From positions 1-35,117 of the forward strand of contig JBGVEZ010000070.1 in NCBI GenBank assembly GCA_045120555.1: DNA of 35,117 nt, in the 5' to 3' direction. The position numbers and the translations under genes were made by a program. Shown in pieces: positions 603-17,019 of the stretch (the first letter of the stretch is position 1; the number at the start of each line of letters is the position of its first letter). The notes beneath the pieces are model-generated. The model did no database searches. It saw only the letters and a list, made by a program, of their open reading frames with translations, and had not been told where the DNA came from. Source of the DNA: Eubacteriales bacterium. GTDB lineage: Bacteria; Bacillota; Clostridia; Oscillospirales; CAG-272.

Positions 603-2174
603 TTAGTTCTCATAGGGGAACTCATAAGGATTCTTCAAAGTTTCCTTGAGTTTCCAGAAGTCCTTAGAAGCCTTCTTAGCGTTATCGGAATATCCACGGA
701 TAAGTGTACCGTAAACTGCGGACCACTTGGAGCCCTTAGCAGCACACTTAGACCACTGGTCAGCGATAGCAGCATCGGGAGAAATAACCTTTGTGAAGAT
801 ACGACCGATATCAAAGGATGTTGTACGTCTGATAACGTCGAAGGAGTTAGCATCGTCGGGCTGATCTGCATATCTACCCTTGAAGAGGTATTCGAAGATA
901 GCTTCTGTAGTATTGACCATACCTAAGTAGCCGCCCCATTCAATAAAGCCTGCTGCGGATTCTTCTCTTTCAAGATCATAGTTACCGGAGTAGATGCCCC
1001 AGAGTGTGAAGGGGTTACCTGCAACGCACTTATAATCTACCTGTGCTTCATCATACTTAGGAAGCGGGAGAACGCCGTATTCACATTCTTCAACGCCTTC
1101 ATTGAAGAACTCACGGATGTCACGGATACGTGTTACCTCAGCGATGTCGTTCTGTCTTGTTGCGAACGTCGTCTTAGGCTCTGCGTTGTAAGCGTGATCG
1201 GATGTGAAGAGCTCACCGAGACGGTCATTGAGGTCGATAGACTTCTTGCTTCCATAGTCGGAGGAAACAACAACGAGTTCTGTGTCCTTAGTTGCATTGT
1301 TATTGATCTCAGCATACTTAAGATCTGCACCTACGTAGAATGCATCGAGGTGATAGTTGAAAGAACGGAGACCGAAGCCGTCATTTTCGGACTTGGAACC
1401 ATTCTGGTCAACGTCCTGATAATAGCTTTCTACGAGCTTATACATTTCTTCAAGAGTCCACTTACCTTCGTCAACAAGCTCATAGAGATAATTGTAATCA
1501 ACACCAAGGTTTGTAAGAAGGTCCTTGTTGAAAATGAAGCCGTATGTAAGGAAAAGGAGGTTGGTGGAGATATCACCGGATACGAAGTATCTGTTACCGC
1601 CTATGTTAACCTCGTCAATAAGAGCCTGGGGATACCATGAGTGAGAAAGGTCAATATAGTTAGGATAGAAGTTTACGGGGAGATAGAAGCCCTTCTGAGA
1701 AAGAAGACCTGCTGTTCTGGAATAGGTAGCAATAATATCAATATCAACGTCGCCGTTCTGAGCTACTGTTTCAACGTACTTGAGATAGGAATCTTCATTA
1801 CCTGTAGAACCCTTCTGCTCAGTCCATACGATCTCAGAAATACCAAGCTTACCCTTAAGCTGATTATTTCTTTCAAAAATAGCGGCATTAACTGTGTCGG
1901 AACCTGCATTTTCTTCGAGCATTTCAAATTCATCGTGCTCGGAGTTCCAGCAAAGAATGTACATGATCTTTTCTTCAGTTTCATGTCTTTCCTTCATCTC
2001 GGTGGGATCGAAGGGTTTGTCTTCCTTGACTACATCACCGTCTTCGGATCCTTCAGGCTCTGTTGTCTGATCGGGAGCAACGGTTGTTTCGTCACCCTTA
2101 CCACCTTCAGCACAGGAAGCAAGAACCGTAAGCATCATAAGCAATGCAAGAATCAAGCATAATACTTTTTTCAT
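603..2174 (-). CDS. Extracellular solute-binding lipoprotein (ABC family-1-like), paralog 1
   Basis: Signal peptide with LASC lipobox, Thr/Glu-rich linker, motifs FNKDLL, V.EGKWTLE, D-x-D-x-N-G loop, YGVLPLPKYDE; AAGGAG RBS. Confidence 0.8.
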   Translation of the reverse strand: MKKVLCLILALLMMLTVLASCAEGGKGDETTVAPDQTTEPEGSEDGDVVKEDKPFDPTEMKERHETEEKIMYILCWNSEHDEFEMLEENAGSDTVNAAIFERNNQLKGKLGISEIVWTEQKGSTGNEDSYLKYVETVAQNGDVDIDIIATYSRTAGLLSQKGFYLPVNFYPNYIDLSHSWYPQALIDEVNIGGNRYFVSGDISTNLLFLTYGFIFNKDLLTNLGVDYNYLYELVDEGKWTLEEMYKLVESYYQDVDQNGSKSENDGFGLRSFNYHLDAFYVGADLKYAEINNNATKDTELVVVSSDYGSKKSIDLNDRLGELFTSDHAYNAEPKTTFATRQNDIAEVTRIRDIREFFNEGVEECEYGVLPLPKYDEAQVDYKCVAGNPFTLWGIYSGNYDLEREESAAGFIEWGGYLGMVNTTEAIFEYLFKGRYADQPDDANSFDVIRRTTSFDIGRIFTKVISPDAAIADQWSKCAAKGSKWSAVYGTLIRGYSDNAKKASKDFWKLKETLKNPYEFPYEN

Positions 2175-2240
2175 AATAAATTACTCCTTGTTTTATTTTT
2201 CGGGCGCGCCAAGAGGCACTTATCCCTTTGGAATACATTT

Positions 2241-2269
2241 ATTATATCACAAATCCATTTTTATGTCAA
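2241..2269 (-). promoter_or_regulatory. SigA-type promoter of solute-binding protein 1
   Basis: Minus strand TTGACA-17 nt-TATAAT with extended -10 TG. Confidence 0.8.
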
Positions 2270-2278
2270 GAGTACGAT

Positions 2279-2489
2279 TTCGGAGAATGTCAAAAAATTC
2301 GGCAATTTAACGAAATTCGCAAAAATTCTTTTCGAGATTTGCCAATCCTTTTCTTTTGATTTTTTATTTTTTCTCGAGCTAAAATTCAAACCATTTATAT
2401 TTTTTTGTGAAATGTACCTATTATATTTTTTATACCTGCGACATCGTAGAGCATTTTGCACAAATCGAAAATTTGTTAAATTTGTACAA
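2279..2489. promoter_or_regulatory. Array of imperfect ~17-bp palindromes (putative operators) upstream of the paralog 1 promoter
   Basis: TTCGGAGAATGTCAAAA 2279-2295, TTCGGCAATTTAACGAA 2298-2314, TTGTGAAATGTACCTAT 2405-2421, TAGAGCATTTTGCACAA 2447-2463, TTGTTAAATTTGTACAA 2473-2489. Confidence 0.4.
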
Positions 2490-2503
2490 GGACACAAAGC
2501 GAA

Positions 2504-2540
2504 GCACCGCGGCAGAAAAGTGTAATCTCTGCCGCAGTGC
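2504..2540 (-). terminator. Hairpin terminator of solute-binding protein 2
   Basis: GCACCGCGGCAGA...TCTGCCGCAGTGC stem 26 nt downstream of the stop codon; weak U-tract. Confidence 0.6.
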
Positions 2541-2566
2541 CGTTACGACCTTGCATTATACGTTAA

Positions 2567-4138
2567 TTACCTGTTTTCGTAGGGATAATCATAAGGATTC
2601 TTCATAGTTTCCTTAAGTTTCCAAAAATCCTTGGAGGCTCTCTTTGCACCGTCCGAATAGCCACGGATAAGAGAACCGTATATAGACGACCACTTAGAGC
2701 CGGAGACTGCGCAATTGGACCAGGTATCAGCCATCATATTACTTGACGTAATAACTCTTCCGAAAATTCGACCGATATCAAAGGACGTTGTTCTTCTGAT
2801 TGTATCAAAGGATGCCGCGTCGTCGGGCTCGTCTGCGTATCTTCCCTTAAAGAGATATTCAAATATTGCCTCTGTGGTGTTATGTACTGCGTAATATCCG
2901 GACCATTCGATGAACGCTGCAGCACATTCCTCGCCCTTAAGATCAAAGTTACCGGAGTAAATTCCCCAGAGAGTGAAGGGGTTAGCCGCAACGCACTTAT
3001 AATCCGTCTGAGCTACATCATACTTCGGAATCGGAAGCACGCCGTAATTCATCTCGTCAACGCCCTCCTTGAACATCTCGCGGATGTTACGAATACGGGA
3101 TATAAGCATTATGGAGTTTGCCCGAACGGCGAAATTTACCGCAGAATTACTGTCGTTTATAGCAAAGTCGGATGCGAAGATCTCACCGAGACGGTCGCTG
3201 AGGTCGATCGACTTCTTGCTTCCGTAGTCGGAAGAAACAACAAAGAGCTTATCCGCAGTGGTTGCATTGTTGTCAATTTCAGCATACTTAAGACCGCAGC
3301 CGGTATAGATAGCATCAACATGGAGGGATTCGGTACGGAGGCCGATAGCGTCAGCTGCAGATTTGGTTCCGTTTCCGTCGGCATCGTGATAGTATTCACC
3401 GGTAAGCTTGAGCATTTCGTCAAGCGTCCACTTGCCGTCGTCAACAAGCTCGTAGAGGTAGTTATAGTCAACGCCGATATCCTCGAGGATATCCTTATTG
3501 AACACGCATCCGTAGGTAAGGAAGAGGAGGTTTGTGGAAATATCGCCGGAAAGGAAATATACGTTTCCGCCGATGGTTACCTCGTCAAGAAGAGACTGAG
3601 GATACCAGGAATGCGTAAGATCGATATGCTTATCATAAAAGTTCACGGGAGCGAGAAATCCCTTTTGGGAGAGAAGCGCTGCCGATCTTGAATAAGTTGC
3701 AACAACGTCTATCGGAACGTCTCCGTTCTGAGCAACTGTCTCGACGTACTTAAGATAGCTTGCTTCGTTTCCGTTAGAGCCCTTCTGCTCATTCCATACT
3801 ATCTCGGAAATACCGAGTGTACGCTGCACCTGATTATTTCTTTCAAAAATTGCGGCATTAACTGAATCACCGCCGACCGCTGTTTCAAGCATTTCAAATT
3901 CATAATGCTCTGAGTTCCAGCAAAGGACGTTAATAACCTTTTCCGCAGCTTCGTTTTCTTCTCTCATTTCGTTAGCGTCAAATGGCTTTTCTTCAGCGGG
4001 AACCGTTTCTTCAGCGGATTCGGTTACCGATCCCTGAGGCTCTGTCGTCACCTCATCCTCTTTTCCGCCTTCCGCGCACGCAACGAGAGACGTAATAAGC
4101 ATGACGGAAAGAAGAATAAATGCCAATAATTTCTTCAT
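2567..4138 (-). CDS. Extracellular solute-binding lipoprotein, paralog 2
   Basis: LVAC lipobox; collinear and highly similar to paralogs 1 and 3 (VETVAQNGDV, SGDISTNLLF, AIFEYLFKGRYA, IRRTTSFDIGRIF); AGGAGG RBS. Confidence 0.8.
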   Translation of the reverse strand: MKKLLAFILLSVMLITSLVACAEGGKEDEVTTEPQGSVTESAEETVPAEEKPFDANEMREENEAAEKVINVLCWNSEHYEFEMLETAVGGDSVNAAIFERNNQVQRTLGISEIVWNEQKGSNGNEASYLKYVETVAQNGDVPIDVVATYSRSAALLSQKGFLAPVNFYDKHIDLTHSWYPQSLLDEVTIGGNVYFLSGDISTNLLFLTYGCVFNKDILEDIGVDYNYLYELVDDGKWTLDEMLKLTGEYYHDADGNGTKSAADAIGLRTESLHVDAIYTGCGLKYAEIDNNATTADKLFVVSSDYGSKKSIDLSDRLGEIFASDFAINDSNSAVNFAVRANSIMLISRIRNIREMFKEGVDEMNYGVLPIPKYDVAQTDYKCVAANPFTLWGIYSGNFDLKGEECAAAFIEWSGYYAVHNTTEAIFEYLFKGRYADEPDDAASFDTIRRTTSFDIGRIFGRVITSSNMMADTWSNCAVSGSKWSSIYGSLIRGYSDGAKRASKDFWKLKETMKNPYDYPYENR

Positions 4139-4168
4139 ATAGAAAGTCCTCCTATAATTATTTAGTTT

Positions 4169-4197
4169 ATTATATCACAGACGGCTGATTTTGTCAA
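4169..4197 (-). promoter_or_regulatory. SigA-type promoter of solute-binding protein 2
   Basis: TTGACA-17 nt-TATAAT with extended -10 TG on the minus strand. Confidence 0.8.
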
Positions 4198-4247
4198 TAG
4201 AAACAGTATTTTTTTACAAGCATTAAATGATAAGTTTGTCTATAATA

Positions 4248-4291
4248 AAAGAAAAACCGGGGCTGTCTCACTGAATAAGTGAGACAGCCCC
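4248..4291 (-). terminator. Intrinsic terminator of solute-binding protein 3 (perfect 14-bp inverted repeat)
   Basis: GGGGCTGTCTCACT (4259-4272) / AGTGAGACAGCCCC (4278-4291), then GGTTTTTCTTTT on the minus strand. Confidence 0.75.
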
Positions 4292-4316
4292 AATATTCAT
4301 TAAATAAATACAGTTA

Positions 4317-5885
4317 TCAGTTCTCGTACGAAACCTCGTAAGGATTCTTCATCGTTTCCTTAAGATTCCAGAAGTCCTTTGATGCCTTCTTTGCGTTATC
4401 CGAATATCCGCGGATAAGCGTACTGTAGATCGTTGCCCACTTGGATCCCTTTGTAGCACAGGCGGACCATTTGTCTGCCATGATATTATCAGGAGAAATA
4501 ACTACCGCAAAGATACGTCCGATATCAAAGGAGGTAGTTCTTCTGATAATGTCAAAGGATGCAGCGTCATCGGGCTCTTCTGCGTATCTTCCCTTGAAGA
4601 GGTATTCGAAGATAGCCTCTGTGGTATTGTACATACCGTAGTAGCCGGACCACTCTATGAATGCAGCAGCACATTCCTCGGAATCCAGATCGTAATTACC
4701 GGAATAAACGCCCCAAAGAGTAAAGGGATTAGCCGCTACGCACTTATAGTCTTCCTGGCTTTCGTCGTATTTCGGAAGCGGAAGAACACCGTAATCCATT
4801 TCATCAACGCCTTCCTTAAAGAGCTCGCGGATATCACGGATACGGGAAATGAGCATGATAGAGTTAGCCTGAACAGCAAAGTTCTTTGCACAGCTGCCAT
4901 CATTTATCGCATAATCGGATGCGAAGATCTCACCGAGACGGTCGTTGAGATCAATTGACTTCTTGCTTGAAAAGTCAGGAGAGATGATAACGAGCTTTTC
5001 GGAATCAGTTGCGTTGTTATCTATTTCAGCGTACTTAAGACCCGCGCCCGTATAGATGGAGTCAACGTGAAGAGACTGTGTACGGAGACCGATAGCATCC
5101 TTTACAGACTTTTTCCCGTCGCCGTCAACGTCGTGGTAATATTCACCGGTAAGAGTAAACATCTCGTCAAGAGTCCACTTTCCCTTGTCAACAAGCTCGT
5201 AGAGATAGTTATAGTCAACACCGATATCAGTGAGGATGTCCTTGTTGAATATACAGCCGTATGTAACGAAAAGAAGATTTGTAGAGATATCACCGGAGAG
5301 GAAATAAACGTTTCCGCCGATGGTGATCTCATCAAGAAGAGACTGGGGATACCAGGTGTGTGTAAGATCGATGTGCTTATCGTAGAAATTCAAGGGTGCA
5401 AGGAAGCCCTTCTGTGAACAGAGAGCCGCAGATCTTGCGTATGATGCGATAACGTCGATCGGAACGTCACCGTTCTGTGCTACCGTCTCTACATACTTAA
5501 GAAACTTAGTTTCATTTCCGGCAGTTGCAACCTGCTCAGTCCATATGATCTCCGAAAAACCGAGTGTACGCATTACCTGATTGTTTCTTTCAAATATCGC
5601 CGCGTTTACCGAGTCGCCGCCGATTTCTGTTTCAAGTATTTCAAATTCGGGATGCTCGGAGTTCCAGCAAAGAACGTTCATGACCTTCTCGGATGCAAGG
5701 TTCTTATCCCTCATCTCAGTAGCGTCAAAGGGCTTTTCTTCAACGGGACCGTTTCCTTCCTCGGGCTCGGTTACTGATCCCTGAGGCTCTGTTGTAACCG
5801 TCTCCTCCTTGCCGCCCTCAGCGCACGCAACAAGCGTTGTCAGAAGCATAACAGCCAGAAGGATTAATGCTAAAAATTTCTTCAT
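4317..5885 (-). CDS. Extracellular solute-binding lipoprotein, paralog 3
   Basis: LVAC lipobox; same motifs as paralogs 1 and 2; AAGGAGG RBS. Confidence 0.8.
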   Translation of the reverse strand: MKKFLALILLAVMLLTTLVACAEGGKEETVTTEPQGSVTEPEEGNGPVEEKPFDATEMRDKNLASEKVMNVLCWNSEHPEFEILETEIGGDSVNAAIFERNNQVMRTLGFSEIIWTEQVATAGNETKFLKYVETVAQNGDVPIDVIASYARSAALCSQKGFLAPLNFYDKHIDLTHTWYPQSLLDEITIGGNVYFLSGDISTNLLFVTYGCIFNKDILTDIGVDYNYLYELVDKGKWTLDEMFTLTGEYYHDVDGDGKKSVKDAIGLRTQSLHVDSIYTGAGLKYAEIDNNATDSEKLVIISPDFSSKKSIDLNDRLGEIFASDYAINDGSCAKNFAVQANSIMLISRIRDIRELFKEGVDEMDYGVLPLPKYDESQEDYKCVAANPFTLWGVYSGNYDLDSEECAAAFIEWSGYYGMYNTTEAIFEYLFKGRYAEEPDDAASFDIIRRTTSFDIGRIFAVVISPDNIMADKWSACATKGSKWATIYSTLIRGYSDNAKKASKDFWNLKETMKNPYEVSYEN

Positions 5886-6748: not shown

Positions 6749-6823
6749 CACAGAAATTGATCCGGCGCAAGGACGAGAATGTAAAATAACTTGCATATAT
6801 ATGTAAATAAATATAATAAAGTA

Positions 6824-6852
6824 TTGAAAAATATATATTTATATGATATAAT
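6824..6852 (+). promoter_or_regulatory. dnaA promoter
   Basis: TTGAAA-17 nt-TATAAT with extended -10 TG, within a very AT-rich tract. Confidence 0.7.
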
Positions 6853-6890
6853 ATATAATAAATACGACAAAACAAAGAAAGGAAAACGCT

Positions 6891-8456
6891 ATGGATTTTG
6901 AAAAAGACCTAAAGGAATTCTGGCCGACCCTGCAGAATCTGCTGTATTCCTCATTTCCGCAAGCTACATCGAATTTTTACTTTTCAAAAACGTATCCGGT
7001 AGAATACGATTACGCCTCGTCAACGCTTACCGTTATCTGCACCAATTCCTACGTATACTCGTTTTTCTGCGGTGAGCAGGCTAAAATAGAACAAACTCTC
7101 CACGACGCATTCCGTGTTGCAATAAACGTAAACTTTCTTGAACAGCCCGAAGCTATAGATCCCTCCGTATATAAAAAGCGTATTATAGAGGACGAAAAAA
7201 AGAAAGCTGCCGAAAACGAATCACTCAAGGAAAGAGCAAACGAAATACTTATGAAGGACCATCCCGAGTATTTCCGTGCTCAAAGATCTCCTGCGCAGGT
7301 AAGCACCAACGAATACGAAGCTGAAGCTCCGGCACCCGCCGTGCCCGATGCGGTGAAGGAATCAAGCTCCGATAACGGAGATTTTATAGAATTCACGAAA
7401 AACGGAAAGAGAATACGCCTCGGCTCAACTCTCCCCGCCTTCAATCCGAACTACACCTTCGATAAATTCATCGAGGGCGAATCCAATAAATTCGCAAAGG
7501 CTGCCTGCTATGCTGTTGCAACAAAGCCCGCATCCGGATACAACCCTCTGTTCATTCACGGTGCAAGCGGACTCGGTAAGACCCACCTTCTTTACGCTAT
7601 CATAACAAAGCTTAAGGAGGATTTCCCGGACAAAAAGATCATGTTTATCCCCTGCGAGCAGTTTGCGAACCAGATGATCCAGTGCATCGCCGCAAACGCA
7701 ATGCCGGAATTCCGCGAAATGTTCAGAACCCGTGACATCCTGCTTATCGACGATATTCAATTCATCGAAGGAAAGCCCTCGACGCAGGAGGAAATATTCC
7801 ATACGATAAACGCGATGATCGATAAGTGCCAGATAATCTTCACGTCCGACCGCCCGCCGAGTGAGATGAAAAACCTTGAGGACCGTCTCCGCACAAGATT
7901 CGAATGGGGACTCCTTGCCGACATACAGCCGCCGGACCTCGAGCTTCGTGTTGCACTCTTCAAGAGCAAGGCCGAAGAAAATAACATAAAGATCAACGAT
8001 GACGTTATCCTCTTCCTTGCTGAAAACCTCCGTTCCAACGTACGACAGATCGAGGGCGCGATCAAGCGCTTCTCCGCAAGAGCTTTTCTTATCGGACGCG
8101 ACGGGGAGATCGACATGGAATACGCACGCTCGTGTCTGCCTGACCTTCTCGGAACGGACGAGCCTATTGAGGTAACGGTCGATAAAATCTTTTCTGCGGT
8201 ATACGATAAATACTCTGTATCAAAGGATAGCCTCATAGGCCCGTCGAGAGTAAAGAACATAGCATACGCAAGAAAGGTTGCGATCCACCTCATAAAGCAG
8301 AAATGCGGTCTTTCCGTTAATTCTCTCGCATCAATGTTCGGCAGAGATCACAGTACGGTAACAACGCTTCTTAACGATTTCAATGCAAAAAAGGATATTG
8401 ACGAAAAGATCATGAGCGATCTTAACGACCTTTACGGAAAGCTCGGAATCAAGTAA
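6891..8456 (+). CDS. dnaA: Chromosomal replication initiator DnaA
   Basis: YTFDKFIEGESN, YNPLFIHGASGLGKTHLL (Walker A), LLIDDIQF (Walker B), RLRTRFEWGL, NVRQIEGA, GRDHSTV. Confidence 0.98.
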   Translation: MDFEKDLKEFWPTLQNLLYSSFPQATSNFYFSKTYPVEYDYASSTLTVICTNSYVYSFFCGEQAKIEQTLHDAFRVAINVNFLEQPEAIDPSVYKKRIIEDEKKKAAENESLKERANEILMKDHPEYFRAQRSPAQVSTNEYEAEAPAPAVPDAVKESSSDNGDFIEFTKNGKRIRLGSTLPAFNPNYTFDKFIEGESNKFAKAACYAVATKPASGYNPLFIHGASGLGKTHLLYAIITKLKEDFPDKKIMFIPCEQFANQMIQCIAANAMPEFREMFRTRDILLIDDIQFIEGKPSTQEEIFHTINAMIDKCQIIFTSDRPPSEMKNLEDRLRTRFEWGLLADIQPPDLELRVALFKSKAEENNIKINDDVILFLAENLRSNVRQIEGAIKRFSARAFLIGRDGEIDMEYARSCLPDLLGTDEPIEVTVDKIFSAVYDKYSVSKDSLIGPSRVKNIAYARKVAIHLIKQKCGLSVNSLASMFGRDHSTVTTLLNDFNAKKDIDEKIMSDLNDLYGKLGIK

Positions 8457-8708
8457 TAAAGCTTCTTTTGCACATAAAACCTAATTTTACTTTCCAACGT
8501 TTTCAACACGCCGATGTTGAAAAGTAAAACCCGAAATTCGCAAAAAAATCGGCGTTTCGGGGCAAAAAACGTACGTAGGGCAAGGTTTTCAACGTTTTCA
8601 ACGGCTCTACTGCTACTCCTATAATAATATACCTTCTACCAACACTTGCGTGTTGATGACCATCCACTAAATAAGCCCCTGCGGGGCAACTGAATCGGAG
8701 GCTCGATT
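8457..8708. other. oriC (dnaA-dnaN intergenic) with variant DnaA boxes, DnaA-trios and AT-rich unwinding element
   Basis: 9-mers TTTTGCACA 8466-8474, TTTCCAACG 8491-8499, TTTTCAACA 8500-8508, inverted TGTTGAAAA 8515-8523, tandem TTTTCAACG 8586-8594 and 8595-8603, then GCTC and TAC-TGC-TAC-TCC-TAT-AAT-AAT (8608-8628). This is the box-GC-trio-AT layout of the B. subtilis basal unwinding system. Confidence 0.85.
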
Positions 8709-11159: not shown

Positions 11160-11432
11160 ATGTATCTGCACGTAAGCAAAAAACAAAAAATAAGCAATAA
11201 AAATATAATAGGCATTTTCGATATGGATACCGCAAGTGTCGGAAAAGACACAAAGCAGTTTCTGTCGAGGATGCAAAAGCGGGGCTCGGTGCAGTCGGAT
11301 ATCGGTGATATACCGAAATCCTTTGTTATGTATGACACTGATAAAGGAACCGAGATTGCGCTTCTGAAGTTTTCGTCGGGATCGGTTGAAAAAAAGGTAA
11401 ACGCCTTTGACGGATACTTTGGAAAAGAATAA
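11160..11432 (+). CDS. remB: RemB/DUF370 family protein
   Basis: MYLHV...IIGIFDMD...PKSFV; canonical position between recF and gyrB; start taken at ATG 11160. Confidence 0.8.
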   Translation: MYLHVSKKQKISNKNIIGIFDMDTASVGKDTKQFLSRMQKRGSVQSDIGDIPKSFVMYDTDKGTEIALLKFSSGSVEKKVNAFDGYFGKE

Positions 11433-11481
11433 AATTACTTTAAAATACAGCGGCATGATGCCGAAGATTGAAATACAGTAA

Positions 11482-13448
<1,967 letters not shown>

Positions 13449-13449
<1 letters not shown>

Positions 13450-14414
13450 TGAAATACGTTGTTGTTTCGATAAATCCCGGAATCGACGAATTCCGATACT
13501 ACGCATCAAAAGAGGATGCACTTGCCGGAAATGAACCTATAAGTGTCGAAAGAAAAAGCGGAAGCAAGGGCGCAAACTGCGCAATTGCTCTCGCATCTCT
13601 CGGCGCTGACGTTGAGTATTTCACCGTTGGCAGAGGCGAATACGGCGTTGACGGATATTTTGCGGAATATACCGATAAGATCACCGTAAGAAGAACGGTA
13701 ACGTCTGCTGCGGAGCGTGTTAACGTCAAGCTTATCTACCCCGAAGCGGACGGAATAAGCGGTATGACCGAACAAAATTCAAGGGGCGGACCGCTTACGG
13801 AATCCGAAAGCGAGGCGTTCCTTGATTCGGTAATTGCGCATGCAATTGCAGAGAAAAATTCCGGAGAGTTTTCAACATACGTTTTTACGGGATCTTTGCC
13901 GCAAAACGTTGAAAAAGATAAATACCTATGTTGTATTTCCGAAATTTCAAGGCTTGGAGCGTTCACTGTGCTTGACGGAAAGGGAGAGCTTATTTCCCGT
14001 ATTTCGCAGAATTTTCCGTCTCTGATAAAGCCCAACCTTGATGAATGGCGTGAGCTTTGCGGCAAAGTTGAATTTCTCAAAGGTTTTCCACAAAATGTTG
14101 AAAAGTCACCTGAGTTTTCAACACAAATGTTGAAAAGTGCCCGAAAACTTGTTGAAAAGTGGAAAAACGCAGTGCTTTTAACACTCGGAGAGCAGGGATT
14201 TTGCTACGTAGATGCAGAAGGCTGTGAGTTCGTTTTTAAAAGCGAGCCGCGCGATCTGCTATTTCCCGCAGGCATGGGGGACAATCTGCTTTCGGCGTTT
14301 CTTTACTACACGCAAAGCCGTAAAATGCTTCCGAAAGAGGCGGCACTGTTAGCGGAACGCTATGCGGTATCGTACGGTCTCACGGGAATATCCGGAAAAA
14401 CGGTTACGGAATAA
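13449..14414 (+). CDS. Divergent PfkB-family (1-phosphofructokinase-like) sugar kinase
   Basis: NPGID, GSKGANCA, R.NVK, GSLP, KPNLDE, LTLGEQG, AGMGD anion-hole motif; start overlaps the gyrB stop (TGATG). Confidence 0.75.
13869..14166. promoter_or_regulatory. Intragenic cluster of oriC-type DnaA boxes
   Basis: TTTTCAACA 13869-13877, CGTTGAAAA 13907-13915, TTTTCCACA 14084-14092, TGTTGAAAA 14096-14104, TTTTCAACA 14115-14123, TGTTGAAAA 14128-14136 and 14150-14158, AGTGGAAAA 14158-14166. Confidence 0.7.
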
Positions 14415-14451
14415 GTATCATATATAATATAAATGAAAACGGAGTAAACAA

Positions 14452-17019
14452 ATGAGCAAGGAAAAAGAGCTTGATCTTTCGTTTGAAAATCAGAAAATAG
14501 TTGATATCGGAATGGAGAAGGAGATAAAGAAGTCATTTATCGAATATTCCATGTCGGTTATTATATCCCGTGCGCTTCCCGACGTAAGGGACGGTATGAA
14601 GCCCGGTCAGCGAAGAATTCTCTACGCTATGTACGAGGATAATATCACGCACGATAAAAAATTCAGAAAGTCCGCTACTACCGTCGGTAACGTTCTCGGT
14701 CGTTATCATCCTCACGGTGACGCTGCCGTTTACGGTACTATGGTACGTATGGCACAGCCCTTCAACTACAGATATACTCTCGTTGAAGGTCAGGGTAACT
14801 TCGGCTCGGTCGACGGTGACCCGCCTGCTGCTTACCGTTACACTGAGGCGAGAATGTCGAGAATTGCGGACTGTCTTATGACCGACCTTAATAAAGAGGT
14901 CGTTGAGTTCGTTCCGAACTTTGATAACAGCCGCCGCGAGCCCACAATACTTCCCTCCCGTTTTCCGAACCTTCTCGTTAACGGCTCTGTAGGTATTGCG
15001 GTAGGTATGGCAACTAATATCCCTCCCCATAATCTCGGAGAGGTAATTGACGCAACGGTATACCGCATGGAGAACCCCGACTGCTCGGTTCGTGACCTTA
15101 TGGAATTTGTAAAGGGTCCTGACTTTCCGACAGCGGCTACCATTCACGGTACTGCCGGCATCTATAACGCTTATGCTACCGGTCGCGGAAGAATTACAGT
15201 TCGCGCAAAGGCAGATATCGAAGAGGATAAGCACAGGATCATCATTACCGAGATCCCCTACATGGTAAACAAGAGCATGCTTTGCGAGGCTATTGCAACA
15301 CTCGTTAAGGAAAAGCGTATCGAGGGCATTACAGAGCTTCGTGACGAGAGTGGACGTGACGGTATGCGTATCGTTATCGAGCACAGACGTGACGTCAACG
15401 GCTCTATCCTTCTTAATCAGCTTTACAAATATACACAGCTTCAGGATACCTGCGCAGTAAATATGCTTGCGATCGTTGACGGAGAGCCGAAAATTCTTTC
15501 TCTCCCTGCAATTCTTGATAAGTATATCTCCCACCAGGAGGACGTTATCATCAGACGTACAAAGTACGATCTCGAAAAGGCACTTTCCCGCGCACACATC
15601 TTTGAGGGCTACAAGAAGGCACTCGACCATATCGACGAGATAATTCAGGTTATCAAGAAGTCGCCCTCCATTCCCGAGGCTAAGGCAAGACTTATCGAGC
15701 TGTTCGCGTTTACCGAAATTCAGGCGCAGGCTATAGTCGATATGACTCTCGGTAAGCTCACGGGCCTTGAAAAGCAGAAGATCGAAGAGGAGCTTGCAAG
15801 ACTTCACACTCTTATCGGCGAGCTTCGCGCAATACTTGGCGACATGGGTAAGGTAAGAGAGATAATTAAGACGGAAATGCTTGAGATAAAGGAAAAGTTC
15901 TCGGACGAAAGAAGAACGGCAATCGAAACTGCCGTTAACGATATCGAGCTTGAGGACCTTATCGAAAGACATAACTGCGTTATCACCGCAACTCATTACG
16001 GCTACATCAAGCGTCTTCCCACCGATACCTACTCATCTCAGCACAGAGGCGGTAAGGGCGTCGTGGGTATGGCAACGAAGGAGGAGGACTTCATCGAGGA
16101 CGTCCTCGTTGTTCCCTCTCACTCCGACCTTCTCTTCTTCACTAACCACGGTAAGGTTTATATGAAGAAGGCTTATATGATCCCCGAAGCATCAAGAACC
16201 GCAAAGGGAACGAATATCGTAAATATCATTGATATCGACGCGCAGAACGGCGAGCACGTCAGCGCGATAATTCCCGTAAACCGCTATGACGACGATTCCT
16301 TCCTCGTTATGGTTACAAAATACGGTGTAATTAAGAAGACGGTAATTGACGAATTCGAGCAGAAGCGTAAGGGCGGTAAGATAGCGATCCTTCTCGACGA
16401 GGGCGATGAGCTTATCTACGTCGGCCACACGTTTGGCGAGGACGAGCTTGTTATCGCGACGAGAAACGGTAACGCGGTAAGATTCCCTGAGGATACAGTC
16501 CGAGTTATGGGAAGAAGCGCGCGCGGCGTTAAGGGTATGAAGGTAAGAGACGATGACTACGTTGTCGGCGTATCCGTGGTTGACGAGGAAAAGCAGCTTC
16601 TTACGATTACCGAGCTTGGATACGGTAAGCGTACCCCGTTCACCGATCTTAAGGTCAAGAAGAACCGAGGCGGAAGCGGCGTTCAATGCCATAATATCAC
16701 CGATAAGACCGGTCTTCTCTGCTCTATCGCAACCGTTTCTGATAAGGATGACCTTATGATGATAACCGACGGCGGTACAATTATACGTACGCCCGTAAAG
16801 GATATTCCCTCCTATTCGCGTGCGGCGAGCGGTGTTATCGTTATGAGACTTGACGAAGGACGCTCACTTGTTAATTTTGCGCTTTGTCCTAACGAGGAAG
16901 AGGCGGAGGAGCAGGCTGCGGCAGCGAATGCGAATATTTCCGCAGAGGAGATAAACGTTGATCCATCCGAAATACACGTTCCCGATGACGTAGTAGACGC
17001 AGATTCCGATTTTGAATAA
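14452..17019 (+). CDS. gyrA: DNA gyrase subunit A
   Basis: [18 protein letters not shown], catalytic [18 protein letters not shown], GyrA-box QHRGGKG, pinwheel repeats, acidic tail. Confidence 0.98.

Follow-up and report, generated by a model that had tools for sequence, protein, structure and literature searches.

The DNA analysed here (the window, a stretch of 35,117 nucleotides, nt) is contig C70 of a rumen metagenome-assembled genome (MAG) of 2,161,147 bp in 284 contigs, 84% complete. Its nearest named relative is an Oscillospiraceae MAG, and DNA of the window is also present in bovine gut and rumen sequencing runs. The genes dnaA, dnaN, recF, gyrB, a pfkB-family kinase gene (hereafter pfkB), gyrA and mreB follow each other in this order, and the element under study is a dense array of candidate DnaA boxes lying inside the coding sequence of pfkB, at 13869–14166.

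Box array in the gyrB–gyrA interval

The start of pfkB overlaps the gyrB stop by 1 base and 37 nt separate pfkB from gyrA. The GC skew has its minimum and turn at 8–10 kb of the window, and ordinary coding sequence with a GC content of 46–48% lies on either side of the pfkB cluster. The relevant features are the following:

6891..8456, + strand: dnaA, without a box cluster upstream
11500..13449, + strand: gyrB
13449..14414, + strand: pfkB-family kinase gene, 321 amino acids (aa), host of the box cluster; assigned from the list of open reading frames (ORFs), Pfam PF00294, NCBIfam TIGR03828 and an AlphaFold model
14452..17019, + strand: gyrA
13869..13877, + strand: DnaA box TTTTCAACA, frame 0, reading F-S-T
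13907..13915, − strand: DnaA box TTTTCAACG, "site A", coinciding with GSLPQNVEK, a conserved motif of the kinase
14084..14104, 14084(+)/14096(−): inverted pair 1, TTTTCCACA-AAA-TGTTGAAAA, 3-nt spacer
14115..14136, 14115(+)/14128(−): inverted pair 2, TTTTCAACA-CAAA-TGTTGAAAA, 4-nt spacer
14150..14166, − strand: two overlapping boxes, TTTTCAACA at 14150–14158 ("site B", LVEK) and TTTTCCACT at 14158–14166 (KWK)

Boxes were counted with a strict pattern, TTTTCMACR, and a relaxed one, TTWTCMACN. By these definitions pfkB contains seven strict and eight relaxed boxes, six relaxed ones falling within 83 bp and eight within 298 bp; the box at 14096(−) is TTTTCAACA, and TTTTCCACT at 14158–14166(−) matches the relaxed pattern only. 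An earlier note on this DNA had listed these boxes, and all of them were found where it had placed them, as were both inverted pairs with their AAA and CAAA spacers and the two copies of the peptide PQNVEK (aa 151–156 and 213–218).

In the window as a whole TTTTCMACR occurs 17 times, against 1.87 expected (standard deviation 1.34; maximum of 6 in 100 shuffles). The window shows no enrichment of the Escherichia coli consensus TTATCCACA, with one mismatch allowed (5 vs 6.3 expected), indicating that the classical consensus is not the box of this organism. The genome's 2,161,147 bp contain 212 strict boxes (0.098/kb) and 568 relaxed ones (0.263/kb). At least four strict boxes per 100 bp are reached at three sites only, namely the dnaA–dnaN spacer (4), pfkB (5) and positions 7918–8088 of contig C216 (6), whereas chains of at least three relaxed boxes with gaps of up to 60 nt are confined to pfkB (6) and C216 (10). 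The genome-wide density scan that had been proposed earlier thus ranks pfkB among three dense places, and the array does exceed the origin in density (6 boxes in 83 bp vs four strict ones in 104 bp), the C216 cluster being denser yet (10 relaxed boxes in 171 bp). Since the MAG is only 84% complete and split into 284 contigs, additional clusters may be unassembled.

Codon choice, origin and identity of the boxes

With the PfkB protein held fixed and codons resampled from genome usage, 0.89 strict boxes were expected vs the 7 present, and no more than 5 were obtained in 20,000 rounds; synonymous permutation within the gene gave an expectation of 1.64, with 7 being reached in 1 of 20,000. Among the 1205 ORFs of at least 250 aa, 1080 have no strict box, 117 have one, six have two and one has three, pfkB with its seven being the sole ORF with more than three; the suspicion that such clusters may be common through codon usage alone is therefore not borne out. 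Rare codons spell the boxes (shares among synonymous codons: Leu TTG, 4%; Pro CCA, 7%; Ser AGT, 7%, and TCA, 13%; Gln CAA, 21%), and the 9-mer is read in varying frames: one strand gives three VEK and one MLKS, the other two FST and one FPQ. Inverted pair 2 is translated FSTQMLKS, with the rare codons TCA, CAA, TTG and AGT. Codon choice in pfkB is thus shown to be bent to form boxes.

The host protein matches Pfam PF00294 with 53 bits (cut-off 25.8), as a member of the PfkB family does, and the NCBIfam 1-phosphofructokinase (1-PFK) equivalog TIGR03828 with 94 bits, well under the cut-off of 292; judged by these matches it is a divergent 1-PFK/hexose-kinase relative. Its AlphaFold model (predicted local distance difference test, pLDDT, 87) shows alternating strands and helices, in accordance with a ribokinase-like fold. 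The segment after KPN, which had been suspected to be lengthened, indeed counts 45 residues up to the next strand motif vs a modal 32 in the family orthologues, and its length is the same in 15 of 15 genus-level homologues. In the model the extra part (approximately aa 207–222) is a lower-confidence loop bearing pair 1, and the helix 223–238 bears pair 2 and site B. Pair 1, translated FPQNVEK, lies within a genus-specific extra loop; genus-level homologues present FPQ, FQQ, FPH, FQR or YQQ at its first box, and each of these peptides would still be compatible with a box, provided that the codon before it has T as its last base.

The same 9-mers occur in the dnaA–dnaN spacer of this genome, where the core of the origin was located:

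8500..8640, + strand: oriC core, dnaA–dnaN spacer, with four strict boxes at 8500+, 8515−, 8586+ and 8595+

The last two boxes stand in tandem and are followed, at 8604–8640, by a DnaA-trio-like run of CTA-like triplets (CTA CTG CTA CTC CTA TAA TAA) and then by a short AT-rich stretch. This layout resembles the DnaA-trio quoted for oriC2 of Clostridioides difficile in the accessible text of PMC7561715, and by this layout the dnaA–dnaN spacer is the unwinding module of the origin. In relatives, the same spacer carries clusters of TTTTCCACA, TTTTCAACA, TTATCCACA or TTATCAACA. Because the motif fills the dnaA–dnaN spacer, here beside the trio-like run and in relatives as well, these comparisons of sequence show the pfkB motif to be the DnaA box of the clade.

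Moreover, the dialect of the boxes is the same at oriC and in the gyrB–gyrA interval of a given genome. It is TTTTCAAC in this genome (G000) and in the congener G002; TTATCAACA in G042, with four boxes at oriC and three in the interval; and mainly TTTTCCACA at both sites in G081, G076, G098, G068, G009, G005, G022, G004 and G024. As far as aligned loci can show, the three dialects thus co-vary between the two sites across genomes. DnaA domain IV was compared in parallel, using window positions 8091–8453 and the DnaA of 28 other genomes aligned to 1j1v. At the position corresponding to T435 of E. coli DnaA, 9 of the 9 genomes whose boxes have A at position 6 (TTTTCAACA type) carry S or A, and 14 of the 20 genomes of the C dialect carry T, the prevailing residue with TTTTCCACA-type boxes. 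At the Q408 position, none of the 9 A-dialect genomes has H, the residue there being K, N or Q, vs 15 of the 20 C-dialect ones, with H in the majority for TTTTCCACA-type boxes. We take T435 and Q408 to be so numbered, and to contact DNA, in the E. coli protein, and these two residues may form a natural specificity switch in DnaA.

These data bear directly on explanations that do without DnaA, in which the 9-mers would be a by-product of the protein, of codon usage or of a duplication, or else a palindromic operator, e.g., for Spo0A. Two boxes do lie over conserved kinase motifs and PQNVEK is repeated; Spo0A is encoded in the genome, 21–22 bp palindromes are typical of dimeric regulators, and the 0A-box motif, in the form we presume it to have, resembles the box complement at 6 of 7 positions. 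However, the tests above reject codon usage, several reading frames are used for the boxes, and non-coding spacers of sister genera contain the unit as well (see below). No exact 0A-box 7-mer occurs within 14084–14166, and the half-site tracks the oriC boxes and the DnaA domain IV residues, which would be unexpected for the conserved Spo0A helix. A cause other than DnaA is accordingly unlikely, and in our estimate very much so. On the whole, with these codon tests, the recurrence in coding and non-coding DNA, the co-variation with oriC and the congener described below, the earlier proposal of genuine boxes in dual-coded DNA under selection at the DNA level has held up, and 13869–14166 is very probably a selected DnaA-binding array.

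The interval in relatives

Among 26 pfkB orthologues, eight have an excess of boxes at p < 0.05 by synonymous permutation, four of these at 0 of 2000. The conserved GVEK/GVDK motif at site A bears a box in 11 of the 26, and site B, read VEK (frame 2) or CGK (frame 0), in 6. The pfkB of the same-genus genome G002, with approximately 50% protein identity, has three strict boxes vs 0.46 expected (p = 0.002), and three boxes stand at places homologous to those of the window, one being shifted by one base so as to read FFN instead of FST. Boxes are thus kept in orthologues, including this distant congener, which is the outcome that the earlier note had needed. Gene order in G002 (L124, contig C73) is rearranged to dnaA, gyrB, boxes, dnaN, recF, pfkB, gyrA, with origin-type boxes between gyrB and dnaN, and G041 (L067) has recF-pfkB-gyrA with no gyrB between; in both, pfkB goes with gyrA and not with gyrB. 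The assembly of G002 is interrupted within pfkB, the end of L025/L060 (C73) and the start of L003/L059 (C19) overlapping at aa 96–132; the two contig ends differ by one base in an A-run just before the C73 end, apparently through a homopolymer error of assembly.

PfkB proteins of 80–83% identity exist; a search with the PfkB protein retrieved no related loci in metagenome or genome contigs, and one with the PfkB alignment A1 retrieved none in metagenome contigs and only the two G002 contigs among genome contigs. In four rumen runs screened at 80% likeness only a near-identical strain covers pfkB, with too little diversity for a test; its variable places in the gene (13604, 13754, 14249 and 14253) are all outside boxes. 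Rumen contigs that skip 13442–14512 come from different organisms; there the end of gyrB adjoins the gyrA start directly. In G001, a third species of the genus (70% complete), the true gyrA and a pfkB orthologue were not found with the queries used, from which no absence is deduced.

The gyrB–gyrA interval was then surveyed at 88 loci. In 63 of them the end of gyrB and the start of gyrA are both present; the remaining 25 are paralogue loci, contig ends or rearranged. Relaxed boxes number 102 in 53.5 kb of interval (1.91/kb) vs 76 in 165.6 kb of flanks (0.46/kb). At least two boxes are present in 24 of the 63 intervals and at least three in 19; of the 41 loci without pfkB, 17 and 14, respectively, reach these counts, as do 7 and 5 of the 22 loci with it. 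Ten of the close pairs in the interval are convergent (inverted) pairs with a spacer of exactly 3 nt, often directly after the gyrB stop and non-coding (L094, L068, L071, L077, L064, L062 and, in another family, L121). The same 21-bp inverted unit is hence non-coding in sister genera, and within pfkB it is translated (S/G)FPQxVEK (L080, L067 and the window). The order gyrB-pfkB-gyrA recurs across the family with PfkB proteins of approximately 30% identity, but is not universal, pfkB being detected by hidden Markov model in 13 of 60 further loci. On this sequence survey, a gyrB–gyrA box cluster, coding or non-coding, is a family-wide feature of these Oscillospiraceae, and it belongs to the interval upstream of gyrA rather than to pfkB as such, a point that the earlier note had overlooked. 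The pfkB array would then be this genome's version of the cluster that many Oscillospiraceae have, approximately 5.5 kb from the dnaA–dnaN origin.

The richest non-coding case is L062 (G081), where positions 534–1119, directly after the gyrB stop, hold eight TTTTCCACA boxes in approximately 600 bp, including two triplets built on the 3-nt-spacer inverted pair. A 9-mer resembling a box was also noted at 12906–12914, near the gyrB 3′ end, and at the same place in L004, L009, L015 and L008; conservation of a GyrB peptide is its probable cause. In the literature searched, with subscription journals mostly outside its scope, neither a DnaA-box cluster at gyrB–gyrA nor one embedded in coding sequence was found described, and the papers examined that mention both "gyrB-gyrA" and "DnaA box" only name the gene cluster.

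The position of the cluster raises the question of a transcriptional role. DnaA bound upstream of gyrA, within a gyrB-pfkB-gyrA unit, would block or modulate RNA polymerase and set the output of gyrA (and pfkB) vs that of gyrB, linking initiator level to supercoiling. The DnaA/box complex of E. coli can act as a transcription block. In favour of such a role, the three genes are tightly packed and a promoter scan of 11300–14700 gave none above chance inside pfkB (3 found vs 3.1 expected). Boxes fill the gyrB–gyrA spacer where this is short (L094, L068, L079, L107 and L121), and in G002 and G041 gyrB has moved away, yet the box-bearing pfkB is still directly upstream of gyrA. The accessible text of PMC3245932 adds that DnaA-box clusters (DBCs) of Bacillus subtilis regulate neighbouring genes too. 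On the other side, in several long spacers the boxes stand just after the gyrB stop, followed in L062 by a candidate ORF start, and a contig from an RNA library (metatranscriptome) runs from the end of gyrB across pfkB into the start of gyrA, which implies read-through; DNA carry-over being possible, it is weak evidence for transcription from gyrB through pfkB into gyrA. We consider the transcriptional role unlikely as the main explanation; it would be compatible with the titrating cluster that we favour below.

The region upstream of dnaA was examined in 37 dnaA loci (L029–L058, L121 and L124–L129) from 36 genomes, G002 being present twice, sampled over the family and the order. None of the 37 has a box cluster in this region, taken as up to 800 bp, where 0–2 boxes were counted, and the 94-nt spacer of the window (6797–6890) is very AT-rich with no box; the usual oriC1 half would therefore be missing in these loci. 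Beyond this spacer, at 603–5885 on the minus strand, three tandem paralogous ORFs of 522–523 aa run divergently from dnaA and match the solute-binding protein family PF01547 weakly, below the cut-off.

Such an absence could suggest that the pfkB cluster is the distal half of a bipartite origin, in which DnaA would bridge it to the dnaA–dnaN boxes, loop out dnaN-recF-gyrB and help to unwind the DNA unwinding element (DUE). Indeed, clostridial and Bacillus origins are bipartite, and melting in vitro needed both halves in C. difficile, according to the accessible text of PMC7561715; the gyrB–gyrA cluster is moreover the nearest second cluster and has the same box dialect as oriC. Nevertheless, 39 of the 63 loci are without an interval cluster, which cannot be an obligatory part of the origin family-wide. 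Known halves flank dnaA at approximately 1.5 kb and are separated by dnaA alone, whereas dnaN, recF and gyrB, in all approximately 5.5 kb, lie between the two clusters here, and no DnaA-trio-like run or AT-rich DUE adjoins the one in pfkB. In G002 the origin boxes stand between gyrB and dnaN, the order is rearranged, and the pfkB boxes persist. A bipartite origin is, on these data, more doubtful still than the transcriptional role.

The densest cluster of the genome is the one on C216 (L001, 7918–8088), which had been overlooked earlier and is the second, larger extra-origin cluster. Its 171 bp contain 10 relaxed boxes as well as near-boxes, three inverted pairs among them, and it lies between the 3′ ends of two convergent genes, for a rubrerythrin and an ECF-S-like protein. 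In G002 it is syntenic (L122, 2314–2473, nine boxes) although the flanking proteins are just 46–63% identical, indicating that the genus keeps DnaA-box clusters that are neither origin nor promoter.

Proposed role and known systems

We propose that a selected cluster of eight DnaA boxes is overprinted on pfkB and acts like a B. subtilis DBC or E. coli datA, a combined reading to which we assign a probability of roughly 60%. Several DnaA molecules would bind, largely as head-to-head pairs on the 21–22 bp inverted units. Lying 5.5 kb downstream of the origin on the leading side, the cluster would be copied seconds after initiation, and it is this early copying that would make it act as the oriC-proximal DBCs or datA do: it would sequester or otherwise handle the initiator and damp re-initiation, and might also affect transcription into gyrA. 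Titration or negative control as its main role remains tentative, at somewhat under even odds from layout and position, and is the weaker part of the proposal.

Measured against what is expected of an extra-origin cluster, at least three boxes of the origin's own type at a mean spacing below 100 bp (as worded in the accessible text of PMC7561715), the array qualifies, and it lies outside the unwinding module. Its selective maintenance is indicated by the codon tests, the orthologues, the family survey and G002. Its location departs from what is usual, being within the pfkB ORF; in many sister genera the cluster is intergenic.

Several observations weigh against this proposal. DnaA binding and function are predicted from the sequence of an uncultured rumen MAG, and both the relaxed pattern, TTWTCMACN, and the names given to the dialects were set only after inspection of the data. 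The boxes at 13907 and 14150 lie over motifs conserved in the kinase family (GVEK and YVEK), so that protein constraint contributes. No significant box excess was seen in 18 of the 26 pfkB orthologues, and the cluster is not universal, 39 of the 63 intervals having only 0–1 boxes. In eight proteins of the group with approximately 80% identity (that of the window and seven relatives), residues covered by boxes were not significantly more invariant than the others (20/29 vs 184/292, Fisher p = 0.69). The genomes compared are related and not independent samples, and the DnaA domain IV co-variation counts overstate their independence. Finally, in the accessible text of PMC4447404, B. subtilis intragenic sites bound by DnaA in vitro went undetected in vivo, transcription being a possible cause; as it is there suggested to hinder DnaA at an intragenic site, the read-through implied by the RNA library matters here. 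The accessible text of PMC3245932 likewise places all six B. subtilis DBCs in intergenic DNA.

A bolder version would have the gyrB–gyrA cluster as the relocated upstream-of-dnaA half, the kinase coding DNA as a working part of the origin or a DnaA valve on gyrA, and the extra loop FPQNVEK as present for the 21-bp DnaA pair and not for protein function; we think it improbable. If true, coding DNA of a sugar kinase would be part of a replication origin, or a valve coupling initiator level to supercoiling. The array would in any case offer a natural example of protein coding and initiator binding on the same bases, paid for with rare codons and an added loop, and a previously unreported conserved DnaA-box locus, at gyrB–gyrA, in a large family of gut and rumen bacteria without an upstream-of-dnaA cluster in the loci examined. 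The specificity series TTTTCCACA, TTTTCAACA and TTATCAACA, which co-varies with two DnaA domain IV residues, could be used for the study of box recognition, and the array is a warning for the annotation and codon optimisation of such genes.

Among known systems, the DARS1 and DARS2 loci of E. coli come close in the layout of the boxes. By analogy, opposed boxes would force head-to-head DnaA contacts, with ADP release and regeneration of ATP-DnaA. The boxes 14115(+), 14128(−) and 14150(−) reproduce the DARS core as given in the accessible text of PMC6868365, two opposed boxes (I and II) and a third along the second, and inverted pairs dominate the interval clusters. On the contrary, the spacer between boxes I and II is 5 bp in DARS1, according to that same text, and the DARS loci are non-coding, vs 3–4 bp and coding DNA in the window. 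Inverted pairs are found inside the origins of the family too, so that the arrangement is unspecific. A DARS-like function has therefore very little probability. To our knowledge, no DARS system has been described outside proteobacteria.

The "double DnaA boxes" to which DnaA binds in living E. coli are likewise pairs, 2–3 bp apart, in which spacing matters, and few of them are intragenic (Stringer et al. 2024, PMC11317965, in its accessible text); from the sequences quoted there we read them as running in the same direction, whereas the signature pair of the window is inverted. Bipartite origins (B. subtilis, C. difficile and Helicobacter pylori; PMC7561715 and PMC3479198, in the parts accessible) share with the locus two clusters near dnaA, that of the dnaA–dnaN spacer having the trio and DUE, and differ in that the second cluster of the window is downstream, past dnaN-recF-gyrB, intragenic and absent in most relatives.

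The likeness to E. coli datA, drawn from sequence, is that of an extra-origin cluster which is copied early and would lower initiation potential. A distance of 5.5 kb places the window cluster much nearer to the origin, and membership of datA is not claimed. As far as the datA literature is accessible, datA acts via hydrolysis of ATP-DnaA dependent on the protein IHF.

DnaA-box clusters of B. subtilis outside oriC were reportedly described by Ishikawa et al. in 2007. They are intergenic, mostly proximal to oriC, restrain initiation by dosage and in some cases regulate neighbouring genes, in the accessible text of Okumura et al. (2012, PMC3245932). None of the six described in that text is at gyrB–gyrA, whereas the cluster of the window is translated and known from sequence alone; its box is TTTTCAACA vs TTATCCACA, and it is dominated by inverted pairs with 3–4 nt spacers. 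What the two have in common is that they belong to Firmicutes, comprise several boxes of the origin type, lie mostly close to oriC and occur several times per genome, here at least twice besides oriC.

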